A DNA stretch of 64,000 nucleotides from IMG/VR virus record IMGVR_UViG_3300042868_011620, positions 32,001 through 96,000 of that record; one strand, given 5' to 3'. The DNA comes from a virus. Under the pieces are notes generated by a model. That model saw only the letters and a list, made by a program, of their open reading frames with translations, was not told the DNA's origin and searched no databases. Every line of letters starts with the position of its first letter. Position 1 is the first letter of the stretch. A program made the translations under genes and the position numbers. Below, piece after piece: positions 24,271 to 48,068 of the stretch.

Positions 24271-26245
24271 TGATTTGGTTTGAGTGGTAAAGGATTGCTG
24301 CGGATAAGTCGTCTTCTAGTTGATGCTCCGCCAAAATGGATAAGATTTCCTCTTTTGGTTGCAAAAGAGAAATTTGTTCAAAGTCGTTTACACAAGAACT
24401 AGCACAAGATGCCCAATTTTCTGCATCTTTAGAAACAATAACTTTCTCGCACAGTTGATCTAGGATGTTAGACTGCTGTTCTGAAAGAGTTTTAATTTTA
24501 AATTTCTTTTTGAGAGAGGCATCTGCCAAAGCTCTCATTTGCTCCATTTTTTTAATGGTAGAGTGAATGTTTTTAACAGAGTATTCAGCTTTAACAATGG
24601 GAATGCCAGTTGTTCCCTGTGGTCGTCCAGGCACTTTGTTAGTAGCATTGATTTTGCCGCCTTCTGGAGTTGGAGGAGCGATGAAAGGAATACCACCAAC
24701 GATAGGATTGTAGTATCCATCTTTTCTCTCGTTGATATAAGCAGACTGAGCTGGAGCAATGTCTTCTGGTTTTGGAAATTTGCCAGTTTGGAACATTTCC
24801 ATGCCTTGTTGAGGAGTGAGAATGCCAAGCTCCATTAAACGACTAGAAACTCTCATGAGTTGAGTTTGATCTCTAATGTCAATGTCTCTGAAGTGTGCTG
24901 TGGGATAAGATCTAAAGCCAAGATTTTTAGCTATGCGTTTAATCTCAACTTGCAAAAAGTCGTTCAAGAAAGCGTTGCGAGATTCTTTTAAACGATCAAC
25001 AAAAATCTGAGCTTTAACTTCTGTGGCACTATATTTTTCCTCGCCAACAATGATGTTTTGCAACCCTTGCTTAATGTCTTCATTTAACACTTTGTATTTT
25101 TCAGAACCAAGAACTTTGTTTAGATCTGGAAGAATAAAATCCGCTTTTGTAGTATAGTCTGAAACTAAAACTCTGCCAACACTCTCATTTCTAAACAAGC
25201 CTTGCATAGCTTGCAAATTATTAGCATTAATGCCGCCCTTGTCTGGATCTGTACCCATTGTAATGAGCAGAATAACATTCTCGACAGTGCGAGTAATTGC
25301 TTGATCCATTTTCTTCAACTCTAATTTAGCGTTGATGTCTTCTAACACTGAAAATCCAAATGGAACTGCAAACGGTTCGTAGTCTTGCTTTTTATAGAAT
25401 GAATAACTTAATTTAGATGGATCAAGTTCAATTTTCAAGCCATCCGTAAAGTAAGTTCCTATTTTAATCTGCTCTCTCACCTTTGGTGGTAGACCATTTA
25501 AAATATCTCTGTCCTCTTCAGTAACAGGAGTTTGAAGGCGAGAGAGTTCGTACTCTGAAAGAATTTTTTCGTAGAGTCCAACTGCAAAACTAGAGCTTCT
25601 CTTGGCAACAACGTCAAAAGGATTGAGTAAAATATATTTAACAGGAATAGAATTGTTAATTTTGGACACTTCGCCAAGTTGCTTTACTAAAAGAGCAAAA
25701 TCATCAGCTTTAAATTTGCCATCAACTCTGTACAAGAAAATATTTCCTCCTCTGTAATACTCTCTAAAGTACTGATCTTTCAAGTTCCAAATTTTAATGC
25801 GTTTAAACCACTCAGTGAAAAAATCACGACTCTTTTTATTTCCACCCTCTAAGTAAATTTCAGTATTGGCAAACTCAGACATAACGTCAATAGCATTGCG
25901 AAAAACAGAAACGTTAGCGTAAGCTTTTTGACACAATTCGATTGCTTCTCTAACATTAACTCCATCGATAGCATAATCATAAGGCAGCAATCCGTTGCGA
26001 ATGCTGCCGTAACGATCTAGTGTTGGAGCAAAGGCTGAAGCGTTCTTTCTGCTGCTAGTTACAGATGCTGCTTTGCGAGAGTAAGCTGCGTTGGATGAAG
26101 ATTTAAAAGAAGACTGTGAAACATAAAAAGGATCACCAGATAATTCTGGAGAAAAATTGCCCATTTGTGGTGGAATTGCCTCTACAGATGGTTTAGTAAA
26201 ATTAGACCAGTAATCAGACTTTTTAGTATATGCTCTTTTTTCCAT
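24260..26245 (-). CDS. portal protein
   Basis: 661 aa directly after TerL. Confidence 0.75.
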   Translation of the reverse strand: MEKRAYTKKSDYWSNFTKPSVEAIPPQMGNFSPELSGDPFYVSQSSFKSSSNAAYSRKAASVTSSRKNASAFAPTLDRYGSIRNGLLPYDYAIDGVNVREAIELCQKAYANVSVFRNAIDVMSEFANTEIYLEGGNKKSRDFFTEWFKRIKIWNLKDQYFREYYRGGNIFLYRVDGKFKADDFALLVKQLGEVSKINNSIPVKYILLNPFDVVAKRSSSFAVGLYEKILSEYELSRLQTPVTEEDRDILNGLPPKVREQIKIGTYFTDGLKIELDPSKLSYSFYKKQDYEPFAVPFGFSVLEDINAKLELKKMDQAITRTVENVILLITMGTDPDKGGINANNLQAMQGLFRNESVGRVLVSDYTTKADFILPDLNKVLGSEKYKVLNEDIKQGLQNIIVGEEKYSATEVKAQIFVDRLKESRNAFLNDFLQVEIKRIAKNLGFRSYPTAHFRDIDIRDQTQLMRVSSRLMELGILTPQQGMEMFQTGKFPKPEDIAPAQSAYINERKDGYYNPIVGGIPFIAPPTPEGGKINATNKVPGRPQGTTGIPIVKAEYSVKNIHSTIKKMEQMRALADASLKKKFKIKTLSEQQSNILDQLCEKVIVSKDAENWASCASSCVNDFEQISLLQPKEEILSILAEHQLEDDLSAAILYHSNQINEN

Positions 26246-26299: not shown

Positions 26300-29200
26300 T
26301 CAACAAATAAACATTGGTGTGAATCCAATTGGAGCAGCAGCAGCTTCTACTGCCATCATGTCATAATACATGTGCATCATCCAGTTACCCAACACTAAAG
26401 CAGAGTAAGAATCCTTTCGCGCTCTGTTTGCGCCTTTTTGTTTTTTTAGATTTGAGGGTAAATCAAAACTTTGAGTTCCTTGAGTAGAGGTTGTTACTTG
26501 CACAAGAGCGCATTGAACTTTGATTAGTTCAATCATGTCTTTCTGATGCTCAATAAAATCAATCAACTTAGCCCCAGACGATAAGTCCTCTTCAATTTTG
26601 CTATACTTGATATCATCAATGCTAATCTTAGCAGTTTTTTGCCTAGAATAGTCATCATCAATTGCCATGCCCGCGAACCAAATTCTTCTATGATCAAAAG
26701 AACCCTGAAGCAATTCATTAGCATATCTAATCCAAAAAGAACTAGGCTTTCTCAAGTGAACTATCCTTTTGGTTGTTAAATTGTATTGACTTCTAGCCTC
26801 GCGCAAAGATTTGTCGTAATCTGCTATATTGTCAAAATCAAAATCAAAAGTGTCTAGTTTTAAACCGTCTCTTTTAAAAACTTCGCTCTCATTACATGCG
26901 CTCAAAAATTGAACGCCTCCATTGTAGTCTCCCACAACAGCTATAATATTAAAATTACTTAATAAATAGTGAAAATACTCGATGTGCTTTTTCAAGTTGG
27001 TTCCTGCCATAGCATAAGAGTGAACCACGGTTCCTCCTTTTTTAGATGGATTTAATTTGATTAATTGAATGGCAAAATCATCTGATCCATCACTCTCTGA
27101 CCATGAAGGGTCAAAACTAGCAATGTATTCAGCTTTGGATTCTCCCATAATTTCTACACTTTGCCCCTCTCCATCAACTACTGTGCATAAAGCCATTTTA
27201 CTAACTTTAAAATACCCCGAACTGTCGTCTGTAAACACACTGCCAAATTCTCGCTCAAATTGAGACTGACTCATTGTGGCTTTTGCTTGGCTGAGCAAGT
27301 TTTGATCATACAATTGTTGAGGAGCGCAGTCGTAACTAAAATGCATGATCACTCTGTGAGCGCCATCTTGTCGATCTGGATGCATAATGAGTCTTTCGTA
27401 CTCTTGATACAACTTATATAAGTATTCAAACTTGTAGCTTGCTGATGACAAACCAATAATCTTATTGCTTGGCCAGCGATAGCGATCTTCTTCTATCATT
27501 TCTCCCTTGGCTATTAATTTGCTCTCTAAATCGTGAAGCTGCTGTCTTTCTGTGGGATTTTCCACCACAGATAAGAATGGAAGAATAACTTCATTCAAAA
27601 TCTTTTCGGGCATCAAAAGAAGCTCATCAATAATCATTCTTTGAAAGCGAAAACCTCTTAATTTTTCACCATCTCCCAGTGGCAAAGCAGTGATTCTGCT
27701 TCTTCCAATTTCAATAATCCATTCATCATTTGTTTTGGAAATTCTAGTGATGCATTGAGCTAAAAATCCAGCTTTTGGACTTCGAGAGATTTCTTCAATT
27801 TTTCTAAAAATCATTTTCGACTGACGAAATGATTTACTAATAATTCCAATGTGAACTCCTTGATTTAACGTCGCATCTAAGATGGCAAACACTGCTGTAG
27901 AGAAGCTTTTACTCATGCCGCGTGAATTATGATGCACAATGCCGTTGCCCACGTAATTCTCTTCGGAATCAACTGTAATGTCTACTGTGGAAGTTTCGAT
28001 GGAAGTTATAGTTTCAATTTTTGAAAAATAAATATTTTCATTTTTTAAAACTAAAAGAGCCTGTCTATCTTTTTCATCTAAAAATTTTGCTGATAAGGCA
28101 GAGTCTAAACACATGTCTTTTCCAAAGTTTCCTCTCTCTCCAAATAATTTTTGCCACGTTTTATATTTTTTCTTTAGATAAGTTCCTAAATTTGGTACTA
28201 AATTTATTTGATATTTTCTACTTGGAAGATTTAAAACTTCTAATAAATTATCTTGTTTATGATCTGAAATGAATCCAATTCTATCGCTAAATTTTTGATG
28301 TCCACTTTTAGGTATTTTTAAATCATAGTATGGAACATCTTTATGAGATCCGCTATATCTAATAGAAGATTCTACTCCAAAATTATTAAGGAGCATTTTC
28401 ACCTGCCTCAACAATTCAATAGATGTATTCTTTAATCCTAATTTAACTGTTTTTGAATTAGAGTATCTCTTGTCTTTTAAAATGCTGCAATATCCATCTG
28501 CACTAAAAATTCCGCTAATTAAAGCTGCCATTTTTTGCTCATTAATTTGCAAGATAGAATCTGGTATAATTTTATTTTTTGCTTTTAAGGATCTGTCGAA
28601 TCCAATAGATTTTAACCAATCAATTAAGTCTTTACTAGAAATTCCCATTTCTAAAAATCCATTATCAGCTCTTGAGCGGCAAATAATTTTATTTTTAGGA
28701 AAATACTCTTTAGCTTTAGCTATTGTCATGTCAATAACTTTAGAATCTTCGGAGCACCAATGCATAGTATAGTCATCAAAATATCCATCTCCAATCATGT
28801 ATCCTAATAAAAAATACCAATAATCACAATCTTCAATGTTCATCTTTGGAGAGTTCTCCACTAATTGAGCGTCTCCCCAACAGTTCATGCCAAGTTTAAT
28901 TGGTAAGAAATCTTCAGTACTTAAAGTTTCAATCTCTTTAAATTCTAAATCTAAAGTTAAACTATTATAAATTAAAGTTTTATGACCAAGCTTTGCCTTA
29001 AAAGAATCGCCAGAAAATGTTTTAATATATAATCCTTTTTCATTTGGAGCATTGAATTTTTTATCAGTAACTAGATTTAATTTATTTCTAGATCTTACTC
29101 GTTCTCCAACATTCACATCTTTAATTTTCTTGAAACCACTTTCTGTTAAAACGTATTCGTTTTCATCTAGACACCAAATGCCCAAAAAGTAATCAGAGTC

Positions 29201-29407
29201 CATCATCGCTTTAATAGCCATGTGTTGAAAAGGAAACAAAGAGACTCCTGTCATGAATTCGGAAGTGAACGAGGGATTTTCTTTTAAAAATTTATATAAT
29301 AAAATTTTAGATTTTCTCTCGTCAATAAATCCTTTGGTATTTAGAATTTCTTCATTAATTCCTCTGAATTTATTGTGTAGTTTTTGATGTCCAGCTTCCC
29401 AACTCAT
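26300..29407 (-). CDS. terL: terminase large subunit containing an intein
   Basis: Walker A-like SRGMSKS, LRGFRF..IIDE Walker B, C-terminal RNase H-like FDP..SDDFA..KDSYSA. Confidence 0.9.
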   Translation of the reverse strand: MSWEAGHQKLHNKFRGINEEILNTKGFIDERKSKILLYKFLKENPSFTSEFMTGVSLFPFQHMAIKAMMDSDYFLGIWCLDENEYVLTESGFKKIKDVNVGERVRSRNKLNLVTDKKFNAPNEKGLYIKTFSGDSFKAKLGHKTLIYNSLTLDLEFKEIETLSTEDFLPIKLGMNCWGDAQLVENSPKMNIEDCDYWYFLLGYMIGDGYFDDYTMHWCSEDSKVIDMTIAKAKEYFPKNKIICRSRADNGFLEMGISSKDLIDWLKSIGFDRSLKAKNKIIPDSILQINEQKMAALISGIFSADGYCSILKDKRYSNSKTVKLGLKNTSIELLRQVKMLLNNFGVESSIRYSGSHKDVPYYDLKIPKSGHQKFSDRIGFISDHKQDNLLEVLNLPSRKYQINLVPNLGTYLKKKYKTWQKLFGERGNFGKDMCLDSALSAKFLDEKDRQALLVLKNENIYFSKIETITSIETSTVDITVDSEENYVGNGIVHHNSRGMSKSFSTAVFAILDATLNQGVHIGIISKSFRQSKMIFRKIEEISRSPKAGFLAQCITRISKTNDEWIIEIGRSRITALPLGDGEKLRGFRFQRMIIDELLLMPEKILNEVILPFLSVVENPTERQQLHDLESKLIAKGEMIEEDRYRWPSNKIIGLSSASYKFEYLYKLYQEYERLIMHPDRQDGAHRVIMHFSYDCAPQQLYDQNLLSQAKATMSQSQFEREFGSVFTDDSSGYFKVSKMALCTVVDGEGQSVEIMGESKAEYIASFDPSWSESDGSDDFAIQLIKLNPSKKGGTVVHSYAMAGTNLKKHIEYFHYLLSNFNIIAVVGDYNGGVQFLSACNESEVFKRDGLKLDTFDFDFDNIADYDKSLREARSQYNLTTKRIVHLRKPSSFWIRYANELLQGSFDHRRIWFAGMAIDDDYSRQKTAKISIDDIKYSKIEEDLSSGAKLIDFIEHQKDMIELIKVQCALVQVTTSTQGTQSFDLPSNLKKQKGANRARKDSYSALVLGNWMMHMYYDMMAVEAAAAPIGFTPMFIC
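27926..29173 (-). mobile_element. intein with LAGLIDADG homing endonuclease (416 aa)
   Basis: Starts CLDENEYV, ends GIVHHN followed by Ser; LLGYMIGDG and ISGIFSADG motifs. Confidence 0.92.
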
Positions 29408-31376: not shown

Positions 31377-32056
31377 TTGATGATGTCGTTTTGATAAATG
31401 ATTTCTTTCGCCTTGTTTTTGAGCATGTTCTTTAAATTTTTGATTTGCTTGTAGCCAGCTTTGCGGTTTTTTTCGTTAGTTTTATAACCCATGAAATTTG
31501 CCACATCTTCTTCTGATTTTTTTTCTAAAAAAAGCATCACATACACTGTGTAATGCTCTGCTGACAAAGCGTTTTTCATCATCTTGTTCAACTCTTCTAG
31601 TGATGAATCAAAATGAATGTAAGAGTCTTGCTTTTGGTCAACTTCTACGAGATGATTCTCAATAGAGAGAGGCATTTTTATTCCGTAGCCAATTTTTTTT
31701 AATTTTGACCATTTAGCATAGTCACTGCAAGATTCTTCTTGATTGCCAGATGAATTTTTAGCACACAGTGTGCCGCCCATGTTGAATTCGCAGTTCATGC
31801 AGGGACGCACATAGTTTGTGTAGTTGTTTCGGATAATATTTTTGATTTGATTGCTAGTGATTCGCGCAATCCATGGTTCAAGGGGTTTTGTTTCATCCCA
31901 CATGTGCCACTTTTTATAAATGTGCAATTTGACCATTTGAGATACATCCTCAAAATCAAACCAAGCAATAGCTTTTAGCTGCCATTTTTTTTGGAACTTG
32001 CTGACTACCGCATCAATTGTTGCATAGTGTTCAGTGTAGGAGTTGTTATTGGACAC
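31373..32056 (-). CDS. sigma70/ECF-like phage sigma factor
   Basis: DFEDVSQ..LHIYKKWHMWD...WIARI..NQIKN (region 2-like) and C-terminal HTH; GTG start at 32056 preferred over 32131. Confidence 0.7.
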   Translation of the reverse strand: MSNNNSYTEHYATIDAVVSKFQKKWQLKAIAWFDFEDVSQMVKLHIYKKWHMWDETKPLEPWIARITSNQIKNIIRNNYTNYVRPCMNCEFNMGGTLCAKNSSGNQEESCSDYAKWSKLKKIGYGIKMPLSIENHLVEVDQKQDSYIHFDSSLEELNKMMKNALSAEHYTVYVMLFLEKKSEEDVANFMGYKTNEKNRKAGYKQIKNLKNMLKNKAKEIIYQNDIIK

Positions 32057-35292: not shown

Positions 35293-35305
35293 CACTAGCA
35301 AGACA

Positions 35306-35331
35306 ACCCACCCGAAAGGGTGGGCTTTTTT
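35306..35331 (+). terminator. repeated intrinsic terminator (representative)
   Basis: CCCACCC-GAAA-GGGTGGG-C-TTTTTT; copies near 35837, 36813, 37122, 38021, 38476, 38969, 39894, 41957, 43008 and, on the minus strand, 34431. Confidence 0.88.
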
Positions 35332-35351
35332 GTGTTAGAGAGGCGGGAGTC

Positions 35352-35426
35352 ATAAGTCGTTGATTATCAACGCCCTAACAATTTTTGCCCCCCGCTCGCG
35401 TAAGTCGTTGACTTTCAACGAGTTAC
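35352..35426. repeat. double 27-bp palindrome element (representative of 12)
   Basis: GTAACTCGTTGA-NNN-TCAACGAGTTAC twice, starts 48 bp apart. Confidence 0.9.
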
Positions 35427-35553
35427 GATGACGCTCTTGCCTATAACATATAGCGTTCGCGCCATTGTCAAGCGCAAAGTTTCAGGAAAGAAAAAGCCTA
35501 AAAGATCAAAATAAAACTTGCGTTCTTTCCTTCCTCGCGTATACTAAGGAATC

Positions 35554-35823
35554 ATGTTCACCACTACTCATCCCGCCTTCAAGCTCGCTCGTAAAGCCAC
35601 CACCCTCGAACTGCAAATGCAGTTCGACGATCAACTCATCAAGGTTATGATCAAGATCGGAGCCAAGCACACCTACAAAGCCCTTCATGAAGAAACCCTT
35701 AAGCAGGGCAAGCTGCCACTAGCATACCGCCTAGTGATCACTCCCTTCCATCAGAAAGCCATCTGGTTCCAAGTGGAGAAGGGAACACGGTTCGATATGT
35801 ACCTCATGACTGCCAACCTCTAA
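35554..35823 (+). CDS. hypothetical early protein, paralogue of 37371..37526
   Basis: LQMQFDDQLIKV..ALHEETLK vs LQIHFDSLVVKV..AVHKETVK. Confidence 0.7.
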   Translation: MFTTTHPAFKLARKATTLELQMQFDDQLIKVMIKIGAKHTYKALHEETLKQGKLPLAYRLVITPFHQKAIWFQVEKGTRFDMYLMTANL

Positions 35824-36084
35824 CACTAGCAAGATGACCCACCCTTCGGGGTGGGCTTTTTTATGTTAGCAAAAGGAGAGTTATAAGTCGTTGACTGTCA
35901 ACGAGTTACGAAGTTGCACCCCGCGCCCGCGTAACTCGTTGATTATCAACGAGTTATCAATTCCCACTCGCCTATAACATATATGACTTGTGCCATTGTC
36001 AAGCGCAAAGTTTCAGGAAAAAAAATCTTTTAAATCAATAAAAATGTCTTGCACCTTTCCCCTGATCAGGTATAGTAGGGGATC

Positions 36085-36219
36085 ATGAACGACACCACTA
36101 CATTCCACGACCTGTTCACTAACTTCTCCCCGCACTGGCCCTCTGACGCTGGCGAGGTGGCAGAATACGATGCCTTCCTTGCTGAGTTCCACGCTCAAGT
36201 GGAGGATCAAGAAGCCTAA
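36085..36219 (+). CDS. hypothetical 44-aa acidic protein
   Basis: MNDTTTFHDL...EDQEA, read manually between promoter and hairpin. Confidence 0.6.
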   Translation: MNDTTTFHDLFTNFSPHWPSDAGEVAEYDAFLAEFHAQVEDQEA

Positions 36220-36268
36220 CAACTTAGCCCACCCTTCGGGGTGGGCACACCACACCCTATAACACATT

Positions 36269-36520
36269 ATGATTGAAACCCTCGACACTGACCTGATGGC
36301 TCTCATGTTCCGCAAGATGGCAACTAAGCTATACATGGGATTGACCGTGAGCGAATCGCACAGTTTGATACATAACCTTTCTGTGCTGAGCACTCTCACA
36401 ACAGGTTTATCGCCATGTGAAGATAATACAATGCTGGCTGAATTGCTAGAGAATCAGGCGACTCATGCTGTGAATCGGCACATGGCTGAATTAATCAATG
36501 TGCTGATGCAAGATGGCTAA
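36269..36520 (+). CDS. hypothetical protein
   Basis: 83-aa ORF. Confidence 0.55.
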   Translation: MIETLDTDLMALMFRKMATKLYMGLTVSESHSLIHNLSVLSTLTTGLSPCEDNTMLAELLENQATHAVNRHMAELINVLMQDG

Positions 36521-36542
36521 CACAATATAGAATCAAATCAAA

Positions 36543-36800
36543 ATGACAAACACTGACAAATATCATCAAGCAATCGTCAAGCGCGATGAAGCTTGGCAAA
36601 CGTGGAATGAATTTCATGCAGCTTGCCGCGAAGCTTACGTTGCCGCCACTAACGCACCTGATTTCACTTACGGTGAAACCCTGTGCTGGGAAAAATACGA
36701 GGCAACTTGTAAAAAGCGCGAGGACGCTTATGTTGAAGCGGTTGATGCTGATGAAGATGTTTGGAGAGCAAAAAACTGGGCAAACAATTACGGCGCATAA
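36543..36800 (+). CDS. hypothetical helical protein
   Basis: 85 aa ending at TAAC-terminator repeat. Confidence 0.7.
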   Translation: MTNTDKYHQAIVKRDEAWQTWNEFHAACREAYVAATNAPDFTYGETLCWEKYEATCKKREDAYVEAVDADEDVWRAKNWANNYGA

Positions 36801-36912
36801 CACTAGCAAGACAGCCCACCCTTCGGGGTGGGCTTTTTTGTGCCTTGAAAAAGTTCTCAAAAGAAGAAAAAAAAACTTGCGCTCTCTCCTTCCTCATGTA
36901 TACTAGGGAATC

Positions 36913-37116
36913 ATGAACAAACCACTTAAAGCTAGTGACGCCGAGGACTATCGCCGTATAATCGAAGTGCTAAAAAAACTTGTAGCTTTCGATGATCTTA
37001 TGAATGACCCCACATGGGAGGATTCAGGAACTTACATGGGCGCTTATCATGCCTACTATAAGGGGAATTTTGAAGTATGGAAAGAAGCTAGATCATTTCT
37101 ACCCCAAGAAGCCTAG
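36913..37116 (+). CDS. hypothetical early protein
   Basis: Own promoter and terminator. Confidence 0.7.
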   Translation: MNKPLKASDAEDYRRIIEVLKKLVAFDDLMNDPTWEDSGTYMGAYHAYYKGNFEVWKEARSFLPQEA

Positions 37117-37370
37117 CAATTAGCCCACCCTTCGGGGTGGGCTTTTTTGTGTTAGAGAAAGGGGAGTCATAAGTCGTTGACTGTCAACGACTTACGAGGC
37201 TGCGCCCCGCGTTTGCGTAACTCGTTGATTTTCAACGTGCTATCAATTCACCCCTCTCTATAACAACTCTCTGTCTCGCGATTGTCAAGCGAGAATTTCA
37301 GAAAAAGAAAATACCTAAAAACTCAAAAAACATCTTGCGTTCATCTCATCATGAGGTATACTAAGGAACA

Positions 37371-37526
37371 ATGAAGCAAGCTTCCTCCCACGTTACTCTC
37401 CAGATTCACTTCGACTCTCTTGTTGTCAAGGTCAAGGTCAAGCGCAACGATGCCGCTATCAATTCCGCCGTTCACAAGGAAACTGTCAAGCGCAAAAATC
37501 TTCCAAACTTCTACACCTTTGCTTGA
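37371..37526 (+). CDS. hypothetical 51-aa protein, paralogue of 35554..35823
   Basis: MKQASSHVTLQIHFD..., read manually after promoter at 37336. Confidence 0.65.
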   Translation: MKQASSHVTLQIHFDSLVVKVKVKRNDAAINSAVHKETVKRKNLPNFYTFA

Positions 37527-37584
37527 ATTTAAAGTCTTAAAAAACACTTGCATCTCTCCCATCACCTGCTACACTAAAAACATC

Positions 37585-38007
37585 ATGAAACTGATCCTTC
37601 CTCTTTGCTCCTTCCTCGCCGTTGCCGCTTGCGTCTACACCCTGGACTTTCCCGCTACTAGCATCTTTTACGCTTTGTTAGTTCTCTGGGCAGTGACTGG
37701 CATTGCCCTGTCCATCATGATTCTAAACGCTCGCCTTCGCCGCAAGGCTAAGCAAGCAAAAATGTATGCCCACCTTGAAAAGCTGATTGTTGCTAGCAAA
37801 GGCAAATTCTTCTCTCTGAGCTTCACCTTGCCCAACGGCAAAAAACAAGTTATCAATGGCAAAAATTTCTACTACTCTCTGCTGCGCCTCAACGAGCCTG
37901 TGCGCTACAAATTTGTTGATAGGAACCGCAAAGCTTTCACGCAGCTTAAAAGAGCCTCAAACGTTCGGTTCATCTGCGGCAAAGTGAACACTATGGTCGG
38001 CCACTAA
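37585..38007 (+). CDS. membrane-anchored SH3/Sm-like (WYL_2-like) protein
   Basis: Two hydrophobic helices plus KGKFFSLSFT..NG...INGKN, paralogous to 42205..42480. Confidence 0.6.
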   Translation: MKLILPLCSFLAVAACVYTLDFPATSIFYALLVLWAVTGIALSIMILNARLRRKAKQAKMYAHLEKLIVASKGKFFSLSFTLPNGKKQVINGKNFYYSLLRLNEPVRYKFVDRNRKAFTQLKRASNVRFICGKVNTMVGH

Positions 38008-38222
38008 CACTAGCAAGACTAGCCCACCCTTCGGGGTGGGCTTTTTTGTGTTAGCAAAGCGGGAGTCATAAGTCGTTGATTATCAACGAGTTACGAAGTT
38101 GCACCGCGCAGCCGCGTAAGTCGTTGATAATCAACGTGCTATCAATCTTTAAAAAGCATTTTAATTCTAAAAGAGTGAAAAAAAACTTGCACTCTGCCGC
38201 TTCTGCTGTATAGTGGTGGATC

Positions 38223-38459
38223 ATGAAGTCCTCCCATTCTTCCCCTCCCGTCTATCGTCAACTCGTTCGCTTTGCGCAGCACTTCTACTGTAGCAGCGAT
38301 AAAACTGAAGTGTCCTCTTATCGGCAATATAGCAATGGTGATGTTGAACTCGAAGTTGTCCATTGTTCTGGCAGGCTATCACTCTACGATTCGGTTGCTT
38401 GGACTAATGACATCCTTGGGGTACTGGATGAACATGGCGAATCAGCACTCTGCTGGTAG
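38223..38459 (+). CDS. hypothetical early protein
   Basis: Promoter-ORF-terminator cassette. Confidence 0.65.
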   Translation: MKSSHSSPPVYRQLVRFAQHFYCSSDKTEVSSYRQYSNGDVELEVVHCSGRLSLYDSVAWTNDILGVLDEHGESALCW

Positions 38460-38677
38460 CTAACACTAGCAAGATAGCCCACCCTTTGGGGTGGGCTTTT
38501 TTGTGGTCGTGAATAGACTTGCGTAACTCGTTGAGTATCAACGAGTTACGAGGTTGCACCGCGCAGCCGCGTAAGTCGTTGATAATCAACGTGCTATCAA
38601 TCTTTAAAAAGCATTTTAATTCCAAAAGAGTAAAAAAAAACTTGCACTCTGCCGCTTCTGACGTATAGTAATGGATC

Positions 38678-38962
38678 ATGAAGTCTCTCTCTTCTCTCTC
38701 TCCTACTCAAGCCATTATCATCCGCTTTCTCTGCAATCTGTGGAAGCGTAATCACGCTCAAGTCAAACTTGCCAGAATCAACTCAGTCAAGGCCCATTCT
38801 GGTCTTGCCACAAATCGCCTCTTAGATATGTTAGACGCTGAACTGACAGCGGCAGAAACTCGCCGCAACATTGCCTTTCATGAATTGATGAATTTTGTCG
38901 ATGAAATCGGATTGGACGATTCGGAAGTTGTTGACTTGTTAGACCCTAAACTGAGTCGCTAA
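38678..38962 (+). CDS. hypothetical early protein
   Basis: Promoter-ORF-terminator cassette. Confidence 0.7.
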   Translation: MKSLSSLSPTQAIIIRFLCNLWKRNHAQVKLARINSVKAHSGLATNRLLDMLDAELTAAETRRNIAFHELMNFVDEIGLDDSEVVDLLDPKLSR

Positions 38963-39140
38963 CAACTTAGCTCACTCGAAAGAGTGGGCTTTTTTGTGGT
39001 CGCGAATAGACATGCGTAACTCGTTGATTATCAACAGGTTACGAGGTTGCACCGCGCAGCGCCGTAACTCGTTGATTATCAACAACTTATGAACGCCCTC
39101 TTCTCATCCATCGATCCCAGACTCTCTATTTAGCACTTTG

Positions 39141-39197
39141 CTATTTGCAACTCTCCTATTTGCAACTCTCCTATTTGCAACTCTTTCACTTGCAACT
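39141..39197. repeat. 15-bp tandem repeat CTATTTGCAACTCTC
   Basis: Three copies plus one degenerate copy; related cluster at 44760-44862. Confidence 0.85.
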
Positions 39198-39238
39198 CCT
39201 CTTGACAAGAGAAAAATTCTCGCGTAAGATGAAGTCCT

Positions 39239-39436
39239 ATGAACCAAATAGAACAAGCCCTCTTTTATCGCGACGGACTGTCTGTAGCCGAAGCGGAATT
39301 CTTTGTTAGAGAAGCTCGCGCCCGCGTATGGGATGGCGAAAGTCCTGAAAAAATTCTACAAGACGAATTCTTTCTTGAACCAGAATATGCTATCGACTTG
39401 ATCGGCTCCCAATCTTTTACCGCAATTGATGAATAA
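39239..39436 (+). CDS. hypothetical protein
   Basis: 65 aa after a TTGACA...TAAGAT promoter. Confidence 0.7.
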   Translation: MNQIEQALFYRDGLSVAEAEFFVREARARVWDGESPEKILQDEFFLEPEYAIDLIGSQSFTAIDE

Positions 39437-39487
39437 TCTCTTGACTCTCGCCCAAAATAATGTATTTTAAATCTCCACTACACCTTA

Positions 39488-39663
39488 TGAAAAAACTCCT
39501 CTTCCTTCTCAACAAAACCTTTTTCCCCGCATCTAAAGAAATCGAAGAATGGTTTCGCGCTGGGGATCAACCAGTCTATGGCGCGAAAGTCTTTTCTCAA
39601 AAATCTTGGATGGAAAAACAAATCGAAGAATCGATGCGCAAAAAATCCCTTGGACTTCACTAA
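39488..39663 (+). CDS. hypothetical protein
   Basis: MKKLLF start. Confidence 0.5.
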
Positions 39664-39689
39664 TCTCACCTTTGAACAATACAAATCAA

Positions 39690-39878
39690 ATGGACAAACC
39701 TTCAAACGAAATCATGGCAATCATTTGTAGCTTAGCCGCCAATGCTTTGCAGCAAAACAAAAATTGGGAAGATGCGATTGAAACGCACGGCTACATGGCA
39801 GAAATGGAATACTGCAACAAAGAAAAGGAGAGCCTCAAGCTTCTTGACGAATGGATCGACCAAGTCGAAGCTGAATAA
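39690..39878 (+). CDS. hypothetical protein
   Basis: MDKPSNE start; ends before terminator. Confidence 0.6.
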   Translation: MDKPSNEIMAIICSLAANALQQNKNWEDAIETHGYMAEMEYCNKEKESLKLLDEWIDQVEAE

Positions 39879-40170
39879 GATCCTAACGCTACTAGCCCAC
39901 TCTTCGGAGTGGGCTTTTTACTGCTCATCGCTAAACTGTTGATTATCAAGGACTTACAGCGCTGCGTGGCCCGCCCGCGTAACTCGTTGATAATCAACGA
40001 GTTATCAATTCACACCATCTTATAACAATTGTTGCGCCCGCCATTGTCAACCGCGAATTCAAGAAAAAAAATAATCACATCAAATTCAAAATAAAAGTTG
40101 CGTTCTCCAGTTCCTCGCCTATAGTCTTTTTAGCTGCACGTTGCAGTTCTTCACACTAACTAACTACACT

Positions 40171-40929
40171 ATGTCCCTCCTCCTTGCCAAAAACGTCGTT
40201 TCCCGCGAAGCTCTGTCCCGCGTCCCCACTCCTGATGCGGTGGATCGTTTTCATCCCATTGCCCATGGTGAACTTGCTGATGCAACTCGCCTTGCCATTT
40301 CCAACGCTGGTTTGGAAATCCTCGAAGAGGAACACGCTCTTGCTCGCGGCGGCTTGCGCTACTTTGGCGGGTTCGCTTTGCGCGGTGCTGGAATTGATAG
40401 CGCTGACCGCAACATCGTGCTGGGCCTCCGCAACGCTCACGATAAAACGTTTGCCGCCAGCATCTGCGTTGGCAACCGCATGATCGTTTGTGACAACCTG
40501 TGCTTTGCTAGCGACATCAAGCTGGCCCGCCGTCACACCACCAACATCATGAACGACATTCCTCGCGTTCTTGCTAGTGCAGTGTCCCGCGTGGTGAGTC
40601 ACTGGAACGACATGGGCAAGCGCATCAAAGCCTATCAAGAAACCGTGATCGGTGACGCCACCGCTTCGGACCTGCTGGTGAAGCTGGTGGATAGCAAAGC
40701 CTTCCCCGCCCGCGACATTTACAACGCGATTCTGGAGTTCCGCGCTCCCCGCCATCCTGAGTTTGCTGGCAACTCTCTGTGGAGCCTTTACAACTCTGTG
40801 ACCGAGAATCTCAAGAACGGAGACTTGACCAAGCTCCCCGCCCGCACCATGGTGATGCAAAGCGTGTTTGACCGCGTGGCGCATCATGAAAGCATCATCG
40901 AAATCGATGCTGAAATCCTCGTCGCCTAA
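40171..40929 (+). CDS. DUF932-like protein
   Basis: HPIAH, GLRNAHDK, G.R.IVCDNL, RRHT, SLWSLYNSVTE motifs. Confidence 0.7.
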   Translation: MSLLLAKNVVSREALSRVPTPDAVDRFHPIAHGELADATRLAISNAGLEILEEEHALARGGLRYFGGFALRGAGIDSADRNIVLGLRNAHDKTFAASICVGNRMIVCDNLCFASDIKLARRHTTNIMNDIPRVLASAVSRVVSHWNDMGKRIKAYQETVIGDATASDLLVKLVDSKAFPARDIYNAILEFRAPRHPEFAGNSLWSLYNSVTENLKNGDLTKLPARTMVMQSVFDRVAHHESIIEIDAEILVA

Positions 40930-41194
40930 CCGCTAGCGCAAGCCCCGCAATCCTAACCGATTGCGGGGTTTTTTGCGTCTACTCTCAGAGCTTCATAACT
41001 CGTTGAGTATCAACGAGTTACGGGGCTGCGCCCCGCGTTCGCGTAACTCGTTGATTATCAACGACTTACGACTGCGCCTCTCTTTATAACAACAACTCGT
41101 TCCGCCTTTGTCAACCGCGTTTTTCAAGAAAAATAAAATGCTTTAAAATGATTTAAAATGTTGCAATCCTTTTTCCCCGTGCTATAGTTTGGCC

Positions 41195-41881
41195 ATGCAG
41201 CTACTCTCTAAAAACAATACGAAGATCATCAAGGGGCAAAAACTCAAGGTGATGACATGGGGACTCTCTCTGGTCCCTAACACAATGAACGGCAAGATCA
41301 ACCTTTGCCCCTTTGCTAGTGATGGGTGCATTTTTGGTTGCTTGGAAACCGCTGGTCGCGGCGTCTTTGAAAACGTAAGGGCAGCGCGAATGAAACGCAC
41401 AATGCTGTTTGTTGACCACCAAAAAACTTTCTTGATTCAATTGGAGTCGGAAATTAATGCTGCGCAGAAAAGCGCCAAGCGGGCAGGAATGAAGTGTGCC
41501 ATTCGGCTGAATGTGCTTTCCGATGTGGGATGGCACAAATTGCTAGACTTTTCCAAGTGGCCCGACATCCAGTTCTACGACTACACCCCTAACACTAACA
41601 GAATGGTGCAGTACCTCCAAGGCAAACTCCCTAGCAATTACCACCTCACCTTCAGCCGCAAGGAAAACAACCAGACTGCTGTGGAGTTGATCGCGGCCAT
41701 GGGCGGCAACATCGCCGTCGTGTTCGATGAACTCCCTAACACTTACCTTGGCAAAACTGTTGTCAACGGTGATGACACCGACGTTCGCTTTCTGGACGGT
41801 CAAAACGTTATCGTGGGACTGAAAGCCAAGGGTCGCGCCAGAAAAGATTCCTCTGGGTTTGTGGTCAAAGCACTAGCATAA
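41195..41881 (+). CDS. GP88-family protein
   Basis: CPFAS.GC...CL..AGRG, IRLNVLSD, FYDYT, YHLTFS, GDDTDVRFLD, VGLKAKG. Confidence 0.75.
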   Translation: MQLLSKNNTKIIKGQKLKVMTWGLSLVPNTMNGKINLCPFASDGCIFGCLETAGRGVFENVRAARMKRTMLFVDHQKTFLIQLESEINAAQKSAKRAGMKCAIRLNVLSDVGWHKLLDFSKWPDIQFYDYTPNTNRMVQYLQGKLPSNYHLTFSRKENNQTAVELIAAMGGNIAVVFDELPNTYLGKTVVNGDDTDVRFLDGQNVIVGLKAKGRARKDSSGFVVKALA

Positions 41882-42204
41882 ATTATGATCACCACCCTTT
41901 CCATCATGCTGATCCTCACCTTAATATCCCTAACCAAAAAGAAAGCCTAGCAAACTAGCCCACCCTTCGGGGTGGGCCTTTTTGTGTTAGCGAAGGGGGA
42001 GTCATAAGTCGTTGAGTATCAACGAGTTACGCGGCTGCGCCCCGCGCCCGCGTAACCCCTTGAAAATCAACGAGTTACGAGGTTCCATGCGCCTATAACA
42101 ATTTCTTTTCCTACGCTTGTCAACCGAGAATGTGGAGGAAAATAATTGCTTTAAAATCAAAAGAAATGTTGCACTCTGCCAAGGATGGGCTACTATAGTG
42201 AACT

Positions 42205-42480
42205 ATGAACAACCAACTTGACGATCTCATTGCTGCCACTAAAGGCAAGTTCTTCAGTATCACCTTCACTAAGAAGGACGGCACCTCCCGCACCATCAAT
42301 GGCAAGAACCGATATGATCGGTTAGTGAAGGGCGTTGGCTCTCCCGCAACCGTCGCTTTGAAAGAAGGCGGTTACACTAGCTTTGTGAACCGTAACCGTG
42401 ATGGCTGGGTTTCTGCACACAAGGAAAACGTGCTGACTTTCAAGTGTGGCAAGATTCGAGAAACTTTCGTGATGATCTGA
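42205..42480 (+). CDS. SH3/Sm-like beta-barrel (WYL_2-like) protein
   Basis: GKFFSITFTKKDGTSRTING. Confidence 0.65.
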   Translation: MNNQLDDLIAATKGKFFSITFTKKDGTSRTINGKNRYDRLVKGVGSPATVALKEGGYTSFVNRNRDGWVSAHKENVLTFKCGKIRETFVMI

Positions 42481-42512
42481 GACAGTCTCTTTAACCCATA
42501 CCTCATAACAAT

Positions 42513-42716
42513 ATGACCGTTTATCAAATGTTGATTCGCAAAGCTCATCTTTCAGATGGATACAGGGCCGCTGCTGCCTTGAATAAAGAATCTTACAGGC
42601 GTCTTCGCGAAGCAAAGCTTCTTTATGGCCACAACACTCTCAAAAGCCATAAGCACTTTGAGAAAGTCAAGATGCAAATGGCAAGAGAAGCTACAGCAGT
42701 TATTCGCTCCCTTTAA
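42513..42716 (+). CDS. hypothetical protein, paralogue of the next gene
   Basis: MTVYQMLIRKAHL...REATAVIRSL. Confidence 0.7.
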   Translation: MTVYQMLIRKAHLSDGYRAAAALNKESYRRLREAKLLYGHNTLKSHKHFEKVKMQMAREATAVIRSL

Positions 42717-42734
42717 CCCACAACCAACAACAAC

Positions 42735-43001
42735 ATGACCACCTATCAATTCCTGATTAAAAAAGCTCACCTCAACGATTGTGAGGAAGACTCTAATTCC
42801 ATCGTGGCAGAAAAACATTGGGATATCGCGACAGATGAGCGCAACCATCGCATTCAAACTGGTATGGCAATTTTCTGCTATCTTTCTCATGGTGGCAGTG
42901 AAATGTTGCAATCGCCTGCTGCTATCAACTTCAAGCGGAAAATCGAACGCGACCTGAACAGGGAAGCTGCCGAAGCGATTCGCGCTCTGTATCAAGAATA
43001 A
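42735..43001 (+). CDS. hypothetical protein, paralogue of the previous gene
   Basis: MTTYQFLIKKAHL...REAAEAIRAL. Confidence 0.7.
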   Translation: MTTYQFLIKKAHLNDCEEDSNSIVAEKHWDIATDERNHRIQTGMAIFCYLSHGGSEMLQSPAAINFKRKIERDLNREAAEAIRALYQE

Positions 43002-43199
43002 CTAATCAGCCCACCCTTCGGGGTGGGCTTTTTTGTGTTAGCGAAGAGGGAGTTGTAACTCGTTGAGTTTCAACGACTTATGGCGCTGCACGGCGCAGCC
43101 GCGTAACCACTTGATAATCAACGTGCTATCAATGTTTAAAAAAGCATTTTAATTGAAAAAAAGTGTTGCACATCCTCCGTTCTACTGTATAATATTCCC

Positions 43200-43547
43200 A
43201 TGGACACTCGCTGTTACTTCAACCTACATAAGAGAAAGATTTCTGTTCAGAAAAAAATCAATGGAGTTTGGAAGGTGGTTCGCCATGCTGACTCTGTCGC
43301 TTTGGACAACGCTACCTTTCAAGTGTCCCAAGCTGGACGGGAGCGCGTCTTGCAACAGAAGCGCAAAAATGTTCATGCTTACATCTGTGGCACTGAATCA
43401 GGAAGTTTCGACTACTACAAGAAGCTCCGACAAGTCAACTACAATCCCTATCTCTTCGGTTACTTTTTCGAGAAGGAGTCTGGAGATCCAGTGTACAAAG
43501 CCCCCTCTGTTTTAATCTGCGGAAAAAAAATCATCATCACCCACTAA
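43200..43547 (+). CDS. conserved phage hypothetical protein
   Basis: YFNLHK...VSQAGRERVL..KRKNVHA...YNPY motif recalled from phage proteins. Confidence 0.7.
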   Translation: MDTRCYFNLHKRKISVQKKINGVWKVVRHADSVALDNATFQVSQAGRERVLQQKRKNVHAYICGTESGSFDYYKKLRQVNYNPYLFGYFFEKESGDPVYKAPSVLICGKKIIITH

Positions 43548-43663
43548 TATGTCAGCCAAAAAAAACAAAATGCCCAACCCGTTCATCTTTCTGCTGGTAT
43601 ACACTTTGTCAGTGGGCAGCATCCTGATGATTCTTATGAAACTCTTTCCTCGCGGCCTTTAAT

Positions 43664-43897
43664 ATGACTAGTTCCAACATCATCGTCACTGCTTTAAATA
43701 CCACTGTCGATCCCATTCTTGACAAGATCATCATGGACGCGGCAGATTTAGAGAATAGTTTTAATTCTTATCAACAAGCTGTAGAGTTTTCCTCTACAAG
43801 ATGCACATACGAGCAAGCAATGATTCTTTCCATCGCTTATAAAAGGCTCGCCCAAACCATGGAAGACATTGCCTCACACATCAAACCAAAAATATGA
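43664..43897 (+). CDS. hypothetical protein
   Basis: 77-aa ORF overlapping the next start. Confidence 0.55.
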   Translation: MTSSNIIVTALNTTVDPILDKIIMDAADLENSFNSYQQAVEFSSTRCTYEQAMILSIAYKRLAQTMEDIASHIKPKI

Positions 43898-44193
43898 GTC
43901 TCGACAAAGCAATCCAATACGGCAAAGAAAAGCGCGTACAGTATCGCCGCAGCTTAGCCTTTGACCGCAGTTGCCGCAACCATGGCAACTGCGGTTACTG
44001 TGAGAGTAACCGAACGATTCAATCTCAGAAAGAATTGCGTCGAATCGAATCACAAGAGCATGACCTTGATGATCCATGCTATCTTGATGATTTAATCAAT
44101 GGGGAAATCACTGTTGAAGAATGGAATAAAAGAGTTGACGCTCACGATGATTTACACCATGACTGGAGCGCTTATGTGCAATACATTAGGTAA
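43894..44193 (+). CDS. conserved phage hypothetical (Cys/His) protein
   Basis: DRSCRNHGNCGYCESNR. Confidence 0.7.
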   Translation: MSLDKAIQYGKEKRVQYRRSLAFDRSCRNHGNCGYCESNRTIQSQKELRRIESQEHDLDDPCYLDDLINGEITVEEWNKRVDAHDDLHHDWSAYVQYIR

Positions 44194-44336
44194 CTCGTTG
44201 AATATCAACGAGTTACGAGGCTGCGCCCCGCGTTCGCGTAAGTCGTTGAATATCAACAGGTTACGAGGATTTAAAAAAGAATTTAAATTCAAAAAAACTC
44301 TTGCATCTTGCTCGCCCTGCACTATAGTCTTTTATT

Positions 44337-44618
44337 ATGATTAAACTTGCTGTACACGATGGAACCCTGCATCTCTATTCTGAAGACTTCAATGGCGACG
44401 ACCTTGGCGACTTTTTTGGAACTGAAGAATTTGTGGAGCTACTTACTAACGATACCTGCGCCAGTGTCACGTATGACAAAGGAGTGTTTGATAAACAGAT
44501 GTTAGCAGGCATCCTTTACGATTACATCGAATGTGGTTGGATGAAAAATGTTAGGGAGGTGGAGCTGCCAGATGGTCGCACGTTCCATATTGAATTCAAC
44601 CTTGAATTCTCTGCGTAA
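44337..44618 (+). CDS. acidic hypothetical protein
   Basis: Own promoter; flanked by double palindromes. Confidence 0.7.
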   Translation: MIKLAVHDGTLHLYSEDFNGDDLGDFFGTEEFVELLTNDTCASVTYDKGVFDKQMLAGILYDYIECGWMKNVREVELPDGRTFHIEFNLEFSA

Positions 44619-44874
44619 CAAGAGACGCCCTTGTAACCCGTTGAATATCAACGAGTTACGAGAGCGGGGGGCGCAGCCGCGTAACCCCTTGATTATCAAC
44701 GAGTTACGACTGGCACTGTGCTGGATTTTATGTTAGCATCACTCTTATTAAGGGGTCGCTTATTTGCAACTTTCTCGTTTGCAAGTCTTTATTAAGAGTT
44801 CCCTTATTTGCAAGTTTCTCGTTTGCAAGCTCTTATTTGTGTTAGTCTTATTTGCAAGTTTCTCGATTGTAAGT

Positions 44875-44993
44875 GTCCGATTGATGGCTTTGAACCACCT
44901 TCTCCAAAATTACTTGCTCCCTCTAGTTATTCACATTGCGCGTCCGCACGAAGGGTAATTGTGGCGCTTTAGACCAAAAATAAGCTAATCGGA
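44875..44993 (-). ncRNA. tRNA-like RNA with enlarged anticodon arm
   Basis: TCCGATT/AATCGGA acceptor stem, GCTT/AAGC D-arm, GGTGG-TTCAAAG-CCATC T-arm, ~60-nt branched anticodon arm. Confidence 0.6.
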
Positions 44994-45003
44994 AATTGTT
45001 TTG

Positions 45004-45597
45004 TTAATCATCCCAAGGGCAGATCTGCCATCCTTCCAGTTTGAAGGAGGTTCCAGTCGGTGGGCTGGAGCGCACCCACTCTTCCATTTTTTCCTTAACA
45101 TGTTCTGGGATAGAGTCGCAGTCTCCTTGGAAACCCCATTCATCGTAGTTGTCTCCAGGGGGATGGTCGCTCCATCCTGCCTCATCTTGAATGTAAGTTT
45201 CTACCCATGCTCCTTGTTCGTTGCGGATGAGAAAGCCGCGATACTCACGGTTGTTTTTTTGATCTTCGCGAGCCAAGTCTGCCGCATTGTCCAGAGTGTT
45301 TTGAATGTTAATCAAAGTCTCCTCGTCCGTTTCTCCACGACGCGCTAACAACTCTGTGGTGCCAGGAGTATCAAAGTCATCAGTGACTGAAACTGCACAC
45401 ACAAACGACTGTCCAGTGCAAATGATGCGCGAAGTGAGAAGTTCTTTCTTGCAAGCTCCCCAGTCAGTATCAAAAGGCAGTCCAGAAGCGATTGCCTGCA
45501 TAATTTCCTCGCGTTTATCGTCATAAAAATCGGATGCGCCCCACTTGGTCATGTCGCCCTTGTTGAACTGACTAGAGAATTCAAAATCTTCGTTCAT
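45004..45597 (-). CDS. acidic hypothetical protein
   Basis: 197-aa ORF. Confidence 0.7.
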   Translation of the reverse strand: MNEDFEFSSQFNKGDMTKWGASDFYDDKREEIMQAIASGLPFDTDWGACKKELLTSRIICTGQSFVCAVSVTDDFDTPGTTELLARRGETDEETLINIQNTLDNAADLAREDQKNNREYRGFLIRNEQGAWVETYIQDEAGWSDHPPGDNYDEWGFQGDCDSIPEHVKEKMEEWVRSSPPTGTSFKLEGWQICPWDD

Positions 45598-46152: not shown

Positions 46153-46227
46153 TGGTGGATCTACTTGGAATCGAACCAAGATTAAAAGCTTAGAAGGCTC
46201 TTGTCTTATCCATTAGACGATAGATCC
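46153..46227 (-). tRNA. tRNA-Arg(TCT)
   Basis: Cloverleaf, anticodon loop CTTCTAA, encoded CCA. Confidence 0.9.
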
Positions 46228-46382
46228 AAAGGTTTATTTGCGTTTAAATACAGATGGTCTCTGCATAGCAATGATAGTCAAGATGAGAAGATTTACAAGC
46301 AGAATATAAGGTTGGTCCATATTATTTTTTGGTTTGGGGCAGAGAGCCACTACACTCCCTGCCCCGTTATGTACCACTACTC

Positions 46383-47843: not shown

Positions 47844-47919
47844 TGGTACATCATGTCGGACTCGAACCGACACTAGACAGATTTTAAGTCTGTTGCCTCT
47901 GCCATTGGGCTAATGATGC
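47844..47919 (-). tRNA. tRNA-Leu(TAA), short variable loop
   Basis: Cloverleaf, loop CTTAAAA, CCA, 76 nt. Confidence 0.88.
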
Positions 47920-47992
47920 ATAGTGTATACTAAAGAGAGTTCAGCTCTTGTCAATGGGATTTTGTTTATTTGTCCCACTCTCTTTCGTAATT

Positions 47993-48068
47993 TGGTGGAC
48001 GCACAGGGGCTCGAACCCTGGACCAAGAAATTATGAGTTTCACGCTCTAACCGCTGAGCTATACGTCC
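47993..48068 (-). tRNA. tRNA-CAT (probably Ile2; Met not excluded)
   Basis: Cloverleaf, loop CTCATAA, CCA; G1-C72 paired so not initiator. Confidence 0.88.

Follow-up and report, generated by a model that had tools for sequence, protein, structure and literature searches.

The stretch analysed here, called the window throughout, is the whole run of 64,000 nucleotides (nt) from position 32,001 to 96,000 of IMG/VR record IMGVR_UViG_3300042868_011620, from an uncultured phage; the runs that contain it are lake-water metagenomes. At 44875-44993, on the minus strand, lies a 119-nt element best read, from its sequence, as a class-I transfer RNA (tRNA) gene in which 51 self-pairing nucleotides occupy the site of the 7-nt anticodon loop, giving a branched arm of ~60 nt. 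A second copy is known from a close relative, locus L001. The parts of the element, in window positions, are as follows.

44875..44993, minus: whole 119-nt tRNA-derived element, from the acceptor 5' base through the discriminator C (sequence, fold, signature scan, covariance model R1)
44987..44993, minus: acceptor stem 5' strand TCCGATT, pairing with 44876-44882 (7/7 Watson-Crick in both copies)
44966..44985, minus: D arm GCTT / ATTTTTGGTCTA / AAGC, stem 44985-44982 with 44969-44966, 12-nt loop with GG
44904..44964, minus: extended arm, 61 nt (RNAfold fold and covariance-model alignment to T4 tRNAs)
44883..44899, minus: T arm GGTGG / TTCAAAG / CCATC, 5 pairs, one of them G-T
44875..44882, minus: acceptor 3' strand AATCGGA and discriminator C (44875), read from the sequence

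The top half of the tRNA is intact, with a 12-base-pair (bp) acceptor/T-arm stack, a UUCAAAG T loop and a D loop with GG. The base-26 position is a G; this G26, A44, G18-G19 and the T-loop T54-A58 are in place in the sequence, if the general tRNA numbering that we assume is applied. The frame is non-canonical through two single-base shortenings: the acceptor stem is joined to the D stem by a single base (A, 44986), against two in a tRNA, and the variable loop is AGAA, 4 nt long. After the discriminator C comes ACT, so no CCA is encoded. In the long arm, CCACAATTAC (44964-44955) faces GTAATTTTGG (44913-44904) with 9/10 pairs and one C.T (C.U) mismatch. Pairs 1-5 (CCACA/TTTGG, mismatch included) hold the position of the tRNA anticodon stem, and beyond them the 51 self-pairing nucleotides stand in place of the anticodon loop: ATTAC/GTAAT, CCTTC/GAGGG (one G-T), a TGCG-GACG-CGCA hairpin, and unpaired stretches of 13 and 5 nt. 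A 5-nt bulge, on the 3' strand only, separates ATTAC/GTAAT from CCTTC/GAGGG, and at its far end the arm opens into a small multiloop that bears the hairpin. The minimum-free-energy structure given by RNAfold has the same cloverleaf-like shape.

Much of this anatomy had been described in a first-pass annotation made from the letters, and we find it as described: the perfect 7-bp acceptor stem (TCCGATT/AATCGGA, 7/7 pairs), the T arm with its TTCAAAG loop (5/5 stem pairs), the branched ~60-nt arm with CCTTC/GAGGG and the TGCG-GACG-CGCA hairpin (matching both sequence and minimum-energy fold), the missing 7-nt anticodon loop (51 nt stand in its place), and ACT after the C where a CCA had been reported lacking. 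The D arm with GG needs amending, for the GG is present but the D stem sits one base off, with the single linker base to the acceptor stem.

tRNA ancestry and decoding

That the element is tRNA-derived and non-decoding we hold to be very probable. A signature of seven Watson-Crick acceptor pairs directly adjoining a 5-bp T stem with a TTCRA loop, defined after the element had been seen, occurs at two places in the window, tRNA-Arg and the element; dinucleotide shuffles yield it 14 times in 1000, or 0.014 expected per window. As a test independent of that signature, a covariance model, R1, was built from the two known copies (window and L001, with self scores of 158.7 and 161 bits, respectively) and run unfiltered on the tRNA region of phage T4. 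There its three top-scoring matches all fall on genuine tRNAs, at 25.2 bits for tRNA-Pro, 24.3 bits for tRNA-Thr and 13.4 bits for tRNA-Gly, with E about 2e-5 to 3e-5 for the first two. In the alignments the first five arm pairs fall on the anticodon stems and 51 model positions face the 7-nt loops, and the element lacks one base after the acceptor stem and another in the variable loop; tRNA-Thr requires a 1-nt insert at the acceptor/D junction, the 4-bp D stem and GG being present. The phage's own three tRNAs score 8-12 bits. Because this reciprocal test matches true T4 tRNAs, the element is, as judged from sequence comparison, derived from a class-I tRNA gene. The "tRNA-like" of the first-pass annotation is borne out by the matches to T4 tRNA-Pro and tRNA-Thr and by the place of the element in a same-strand, tRNA-bearing gene block.

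Standard tools leave the element uncalled. On the window, ARAGORN at default settings finds tRNA-Arg(TCT), tRNA-Leu(TAA) and tRNA-Met(CAT) only, at scores of 118-119, and Rfam at gathering score reports the same three canonical tRNAs alone. Two checks proposed in the first-pass annotation came out negative: ARAGORN with introns allowed adds no call at default thresholds, and Infernal with Rfam gives no RF00005 match to the element, at gathering score or at E≤10. Between 44600 and 45300, Rfam at E≤10 finds no tRNA, transfer-messenger RNA (tmRNA, RF00023), intron or ribozyme family. With thresholds relaxed to 85%, ARAGORN calls the element tRNA-Thr(agt) with a 42-nt intron and a score of 88.0, which is chance level (177 calls of at least 88 in 40 shuffled windows). 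Forms excised in silico reach 94.2 (window) and 98.8 (L001) and are uncalled at default.

Several other identities were tried and rejected. A tag reading frame in the arm fails, the TAA of one candidate frame being CAA in L001 and the acceptor having no G3.U70; a tRNA-His, to which C73 and the AUGUGAA within the insert had pointed, has no flanking stem and no G-1. A sigma-70-like promoter in the T arm (44894-44866, 9/12 matches) is at chance density, with 3 such sites found against 2.6 expected.

Strain variation and neighbourhood

Relatives of the locus were sought through the protein encoded by the open reading frame (ORF) of 197 amino acids (aa) upstream of the element. Its protein relatives number 17 (89-33% identity), and a scan by alignment found 169 matching stretches in JGI metagenome contigs, of which 84 encode a relative and 80 were kept as loci; relatives P0001-P0005 (70-89% identical) lie outside the 80. 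Three loci are close to the window (L001, L002 and L003, 96-98% protein identity). L001, whose flanks share 95-96% DNA identity with the window, has the element with 3 substitutions: a C to A at 44961, which turns the C.U mismatch into an A-U pair, and changes at 44929 and 44917, both unpaired. Over the six helices, 35/35 pairs are intact in L001 and 34/35 in the window, or 69/70 cells over both. In contigs of four lake runs from four studies the element shows 0 differences, with 12 variable places elsewhere in 1001 nt; we put the chance of 0/12 falling in the element at ~0.2, too few variants to show constraint.

In L002 and L003, the interval from six bases past the stop codon to the first of the 44-nt repeats that follow the element in the window is ~26 nt long and holds a plain hairpin, AGATGG/TTCTATC/CCATCT. 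The hairpin resembles the T arm only; the 5' 97 nt of the element are missing as a whole. Because this short segment diverges far more than the flanks (96-97% identical), the change looks, at sequence level, like the exchange of one cassette for another and not like a simple deletion. Structural conservation in relatives, whose absence the first-pass annotation had named, beside a want of transcription, as refuting its reading, is partial: the fold is kept in one relative (L001), and two are without the element.

Gene layout was taken from a map of longest ORFs (93 of at least 60 aa), and a Pfam scan covered 49 window ORFs, with matches to an intein-bearing terminase, PhoH, ThyX, a CHAP lysin and a minor tail protein. 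Genes from 45004 upwards lie on the minus strand; those from ~35 to 44.7 kb are mostly on the plus strand. By the layout of ORFs and tRNAs, the element is the last feature of a minus-strand block with tRNA-Met, tRNA-Leu and tRNA-Arg. Its neighbours are as follows.

46153..46227, minus: canonical tRNA-Arg(TCT) (ARAGORN, Rfam)
47844..48068, minus: canonical tRNA-Leu(TAA) and tRNA-Met(CAT) (ARAGORN, Rfam)
45004..45597, minus: 197-aa ORF upstream of the element, its stop codon 10 nt before the element
44745..44876, no strand assigned: three tandem 44-nt repeats, beginning at the 3' end of the element

Turnover of tRNA genes can be followed in L001 (1141-1827, against window 46188-46229), where the first ~40 nt of the canonical tRNA-Arg have been replaced by ~650 nt. 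The insert carries a variant tRNA-Arg(TCT) at 1185-1259, whose D arm is all but missing and whose variable region carries a 16-nt insert (Rfam tRNA, 37.5 bits; uncalled by ARAGORN), and an antisense HNH endonuclease ORF at 1247-1747 (PF13391, E 5e-7); the 3' 35 nt of the old tRNA-Arg are left as a remnant (1793-1827). To judge from the sequences, then, tRNA genes here are replaced as cassettes, apparently with a homing endonuclease helping. The element may be another product of this traffic. As a separate observation, the end CACCAATTTTT is common to the L001 variant tRNA-Arg and the canonical tRNAs and looks like a junction of cassette exchange.

The canonical tRNAs have CCA (46153-46156, 47844-47847, 47993-47996) followed by AAT-T, and a T-rich leader ahead; a TTGACA-type promoter-like site lies just upstream of tRNA-Leu. 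Each 44-nt repeat holds two TTGCAA motifs (CTTGCAAACGAGAAASTTGCAAATAAG), and the repeats are retained in L002 and L003, which are without the element. Twin 29-nt palindromes, 48 nt apart, occupy window 44633-44709, and BLAST of L001-L003 against the window finds many dispersed copies of the palindrome module (~75 nt) between the small plus-strand ORFs of ~35300-44700. Elsewhere in the window, an intein, which carries a LAGLIDADG endonuclease domain, splits the large terminase subunit (26300-29407, minus; PF14528, PF14890, PF03237).

The 197-aa protein has no Pfam or PHROG match. Alignment of 18 family members shows DDFDT, PPGDNY, WG.Q and further residues to be invariant or almost so, and some JGI relatives bear an N-terminal extension of ~110 aa. 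Its AlphaFold model (predicted local distance difference test score, pLDDT, 91.9) has a single, weak structural match, Deinococcus PprA (Foldseek E 0.026, template modelling score, TM, 0.33). A link between the element and this protein was rejected: R1 finds no copy of the element at the 77 more distant family loci, ARAGORN finds no tRNA adjoining the family gene, and the structure suggests no tRNA-related function.

Searches for further copies of the element covered several collections. INPHARED phages gave no match by megablast (2.5 kb) or blastn (401 nt), and a query of just the 119 nt returned 6 short matches at E≤10, in capsid genes, homing-endonuclease genes or unannotated DNA, taken as chance. 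Exact patterns for the 3' part and the D arm had 0 matches in IMG/VR, where no relative of the neighbouring protein was found either; an 18-mer from the T arm matched once, in L082, within a coding region without a tRNA. GTDB genome contigs had 0 matches to the 3' and 5' patterns. Over the window and the 80 loci, R1 at E≤0.01 returns only its two source copies. The next matches, L024 (18 bits, E 0.19) and window 25301-25367 (13.1 bits, E 2.7), are alike at the level of architecture or by chance. The former, the best non-self R1 match, is itself a 98-nt element (L024:2345-2442) whose 7-bp acceptor stem pairs perfectly and which also has a T arm and an 11-bp arm closed by a 10-nt loop; it lies ~560 nt upstream of the 197-aa homologue and is uncalled by ARAGORN or Rfam; the scan that gave it also yielded the longer candidates L064:1627-1749 and L079:388-529.

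Interpretation of the element

We favour, at a probability of roughly 0.55, a reading in which the element is a remodelled, non-decoding tRNA cassette that ends a tRNA-bearing transcription unit and is made and processed as RNA. From comparison of the strains, it behaves as a cassette swappable between near-identical phages. Transcription would come by read-through from the minus-strand block. The acceptor/T-arm half is the part of a tRNA that RNase P, the enzymes of 3' processing and the CCA-adding enzyme recognise; RNase P would therefore be expected to cut at 44993, a cut that would at the same time fix the 3' terminus of the upstream messenger RNA, and 3' trimming near the discriminator at 44875 would leave a stable ~119-nt RNA unable to decode, like T4 RNAC. 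Such an RNA may be of use as a sponge or decoy that ties up a tRNA-binding factor, or it may be a decaying product left by the turnover of tRNA genes. A mimic or decoy had been suggested in the first-pass annotation; the specific proposal of a processed, CCA-added "top-half" decoy, which would occupy an enzyme of the host that binds tRNA or a defence factor that targets it, we consider improbable; if true, it would give T4 RNAC-type RNAs their first function and explain why the cassette is an accessory of some strains only.

A number of observations weigh against a cassette that is made and processed as RNA. The folding energy of the window copy is unexceptional (z -0.73; the L001 copy has z -2.9), and the C.U mismatch in the arm sits in the commoner allele. 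All three canonical tRNAs encode a CCA, which the element does not. RNA runs make up 0/24 of those listed for the window sequence. The covariation looked for at the suggestion of the first-pass annotation did not appear, 0 pairs being changed on both sides between the only 2 distinct sequences. With 3/119 differences from L001, the element is not below the ~4% of its flanks, so no purifying selection is visible. It is absent from 2/3 close relatives (L002 and L003) and therefore dispensable. No homologue beyond near-identical strains was found in the INPHARED, IMG/VR, GTDB and 80-locus searches.

Several of these observations are shared by a second reading, which we regard as possible at perhaps half the weight: that the element is a dead relic, a tRNA gene wrecked by insertion or recombination and now neutral DNA in some strains, with no RNA product or use. 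A relic would be expected to be dispensable and to diverge as its flanks do, and the two one-base shortenings, the arm mismatch and the want of the CCA and flanks common to the working tRNAs all agree with it, as does the neighbouring tRNA gene broken up by an HNH gene in L001 with its 3' remnant left behind. Against it, 35/35 pairs are intact in L001 and 34/35 in the window. The 51 inserted bases stack on the anticodon stem and leave the fold undisturbed, 0/3 substitutions break a pair (a chance of ~0.08, by our estimate, if they fell at random), and the element is identical in 4 independent runs. The relic overlaps with the remodelled cassette and differs from it solely in denying an RNA product or use.

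Could the element instead, as the first-pass annotation had also suggested, be a working tRNA, interrupted by a mini-intron of 42-44 nt that pairs over its own anticodon and is removed by a nuclease and a ligase to leave a 75-nt tRNA? We think this unlikely, although the sequence lends it some appeal. Because ATTAC and GTAAT are complementary, four excisions are possible, each leaving a well-formed AT-NNN-AT loop: AT|GTAAT (Tyr, GTA), ATT|TAAT (ochre suppressor, TTA), ATTA|AAT (Leu, TAA) and ATTAC|AT (Val, TAC). With an A-T after and before the 5-bp stem, T33 and A37 are rightly placed in all four. The 3' end of the insert, GTAAT, pairs with ATTAC, the 5' part of the loop, and pairing between intron and anticodon occurs in known pre-tRNAs. 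A precedent would be the oversized tRNAs of Lak megaphages, described as having "enigmatic introns" polymorphic between relatives (PMC6784885).

Against a mini-intron, all four excised forms score 94.2 (98.8 with the L001 stem), below the ARAGORN default and far from the 118-119 of the real tRNAs, and scores of at least 94.2 make up 8 of the 15 top scores printed for 40 shuffled windows with introns allowed, ~0.2 per window. The insert has no bulge-helix-bulge, only a lone 5-nt bulge on the 3' strand; it is too small for a group I intron, and Rfam finds neither a group I intron nor a small ribozyme at E≤10. Where it would be spliced is ambiguous. In bacteria, the tRNAs for Tyr and Leu belong to class II and have a long variable arm, so that the corresponding excisions clash with the 4-nt variable loop of the frame; a suppressor is not called for, the long ORFs of the window being open under table 11, and the phage already encodes a tRNA-Leu(TAA). 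An intron-less allele is seen in 0/3 close relatives, 2/3 being without the 5' 97 nt and thus without the 5' exon, and there is no CCA of the kind the three real tRNAs carry. As for enzymes, no RNA ligase, RtcB, polynucleotide kinase or kinase-phosphatase, or splicing endonuclease was found among the 49 scanned of the 93 window ORFs.

Least credible is a chance resemblance, or a site acting as DNA (for recombination, attachment or protein binding) instead of an RNA gene, for, while the relaxed ARAGORN score of 88.0 is at chance level, DNA repeats abound (3 x 44 nt directly downstream, twin palindromes nearby) and the boundary of the swapped cassette falls in the 44-nt repeats, the acceptor and T-arm signature is expected only 0.014 times per window, R1 recognises true T4 tRNAs, no integrase was found among the 49 Pfam-scanned window ORFs, and the element is a whole cloverleaf frame, more than an attachment site, which usually copies the 3' part of a tRNA only, would hold.

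A stable and useful RNA from the remodelled cassette would bear on the ways in which phages manipulate the tRNA biology of their hosts; splicing of the RNA would suggest a route of tRNA splicing that is not described for bacteria; failing both, the element is a record of tRNA-gene decay in phages. Non-decoding phage tRNA-like RNAs have been known since T4 RNAC and RNAD, and we know of none with a function. Standard tRNA finders and Rfam miss such RNAs, this one included. The element offers a clean example, with the top half of the tRNA kept, the anticodon loop replaced and the whole swapped between phages 95-97% identical; the polymorphism among strains supplies natural pairs with and without it. 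Its tRNA region also catches a homing-endonuclease-linked replacement of a tRNA gene mid-act, in the relative L001.

Comparison with known systems

Against canonical class-I tRNAs (T4 tRNA-Thr and tRNA-Pro; RF00005), the acceptor, D arm, 5-bp anticodon stem and T arm of the element align. It differs in having 51 nt for the 7-nt loop, in its two missing bases, in escaping Rfam and default ARAGORN, and in having no CCA.

The tRNA-like domain of tmRNA resembles the element in joining an acceptor and T arm to a long helix at the position of the anticodon arm. Unlike tmRNA, the element has C3-G70 and not G3.U70, gives no RF00023 match at E≤10 and holds no conserved reading frame. A separate observation concerns loci of distant relatives, where intergenic RNA-like elements of 133-139 nt (L050:5265-5403, L051:5257-5393, L052:5257-5393) have a tmRNA-type domain GGGGUGG/CCACUCC with G3.U70 and a T arm, and ~67 nt where tmRNA has ~300. 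They score 30-36 bits with Rfam tmRNA (gathering score 47; E 1e-8 to 3e-11), and two T-stem pairs are changed on both sides between L050 and L051. From their sequences, these may be a reduced, tag-less phage tmRNA.

Another non-decoding class is formed by the bacterial Y-RNA-like YrlA RNAs, which reportedly (Chen and colleagues, 2014) mimic the tRNA elbow and are said to have their ends in the stem that replaces the anticodon arm. The ends of the element are at the acceptor stem instead, and it matches no Rfam family at E≤10.

The tRNAs of Lak megaphages are reported to be oversized, unclassified by standard tools and interrupted by "enigmatic introns" (Devoto et al. 2019, PMC6784885); the inserts do not vary across samples, and some of the related genomes have them while others lack them (PMC6784885). 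The Lak exons form recognisable tRNAs and intron-less alleles define the insert, whereas here the excised forms are sub-threshold and the strains without the element are missing its 5' 97 nt.

In phage T4, rnaD (RNAD, species 2, 119 nt) and rnaC (RNAC, species 1, 139 nt) follow tRNA-Arg and close the T4 tRNA cluster, beside the segB homing endonuclease; the element, too, by ORF and tRNA layout, is last in a tRNA-bearing unit. In rnaC, the T arm is CCGGG/UUCGAAU/CCCGG and long hairpins take the place of the D and anticodon arms; the acceptor-like stem is imperfect in its fold and perfect in the element. T4 had been named as the precedent in the first-pass annotation, and this holds for architecture and for the end-of-cluster layout but not for homology, none being detectable: R1 scores 9.2 bits on rnaC (E 0.54) and does not match rnaD at E≤10. 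Neither rnaC nor rnaD has a family in Rfam. RNAC and RNAD are expressed, whereas the element is known here as DNA. Their roles were described as still unknown in 2010 (PMC3014915) and 2022 (PMC9697503). Set beside these systems, the element is a real but modest finding, a variant of the already known, unexplained phage tRNA-like RNAs and oversized pseudo-tRNAs.

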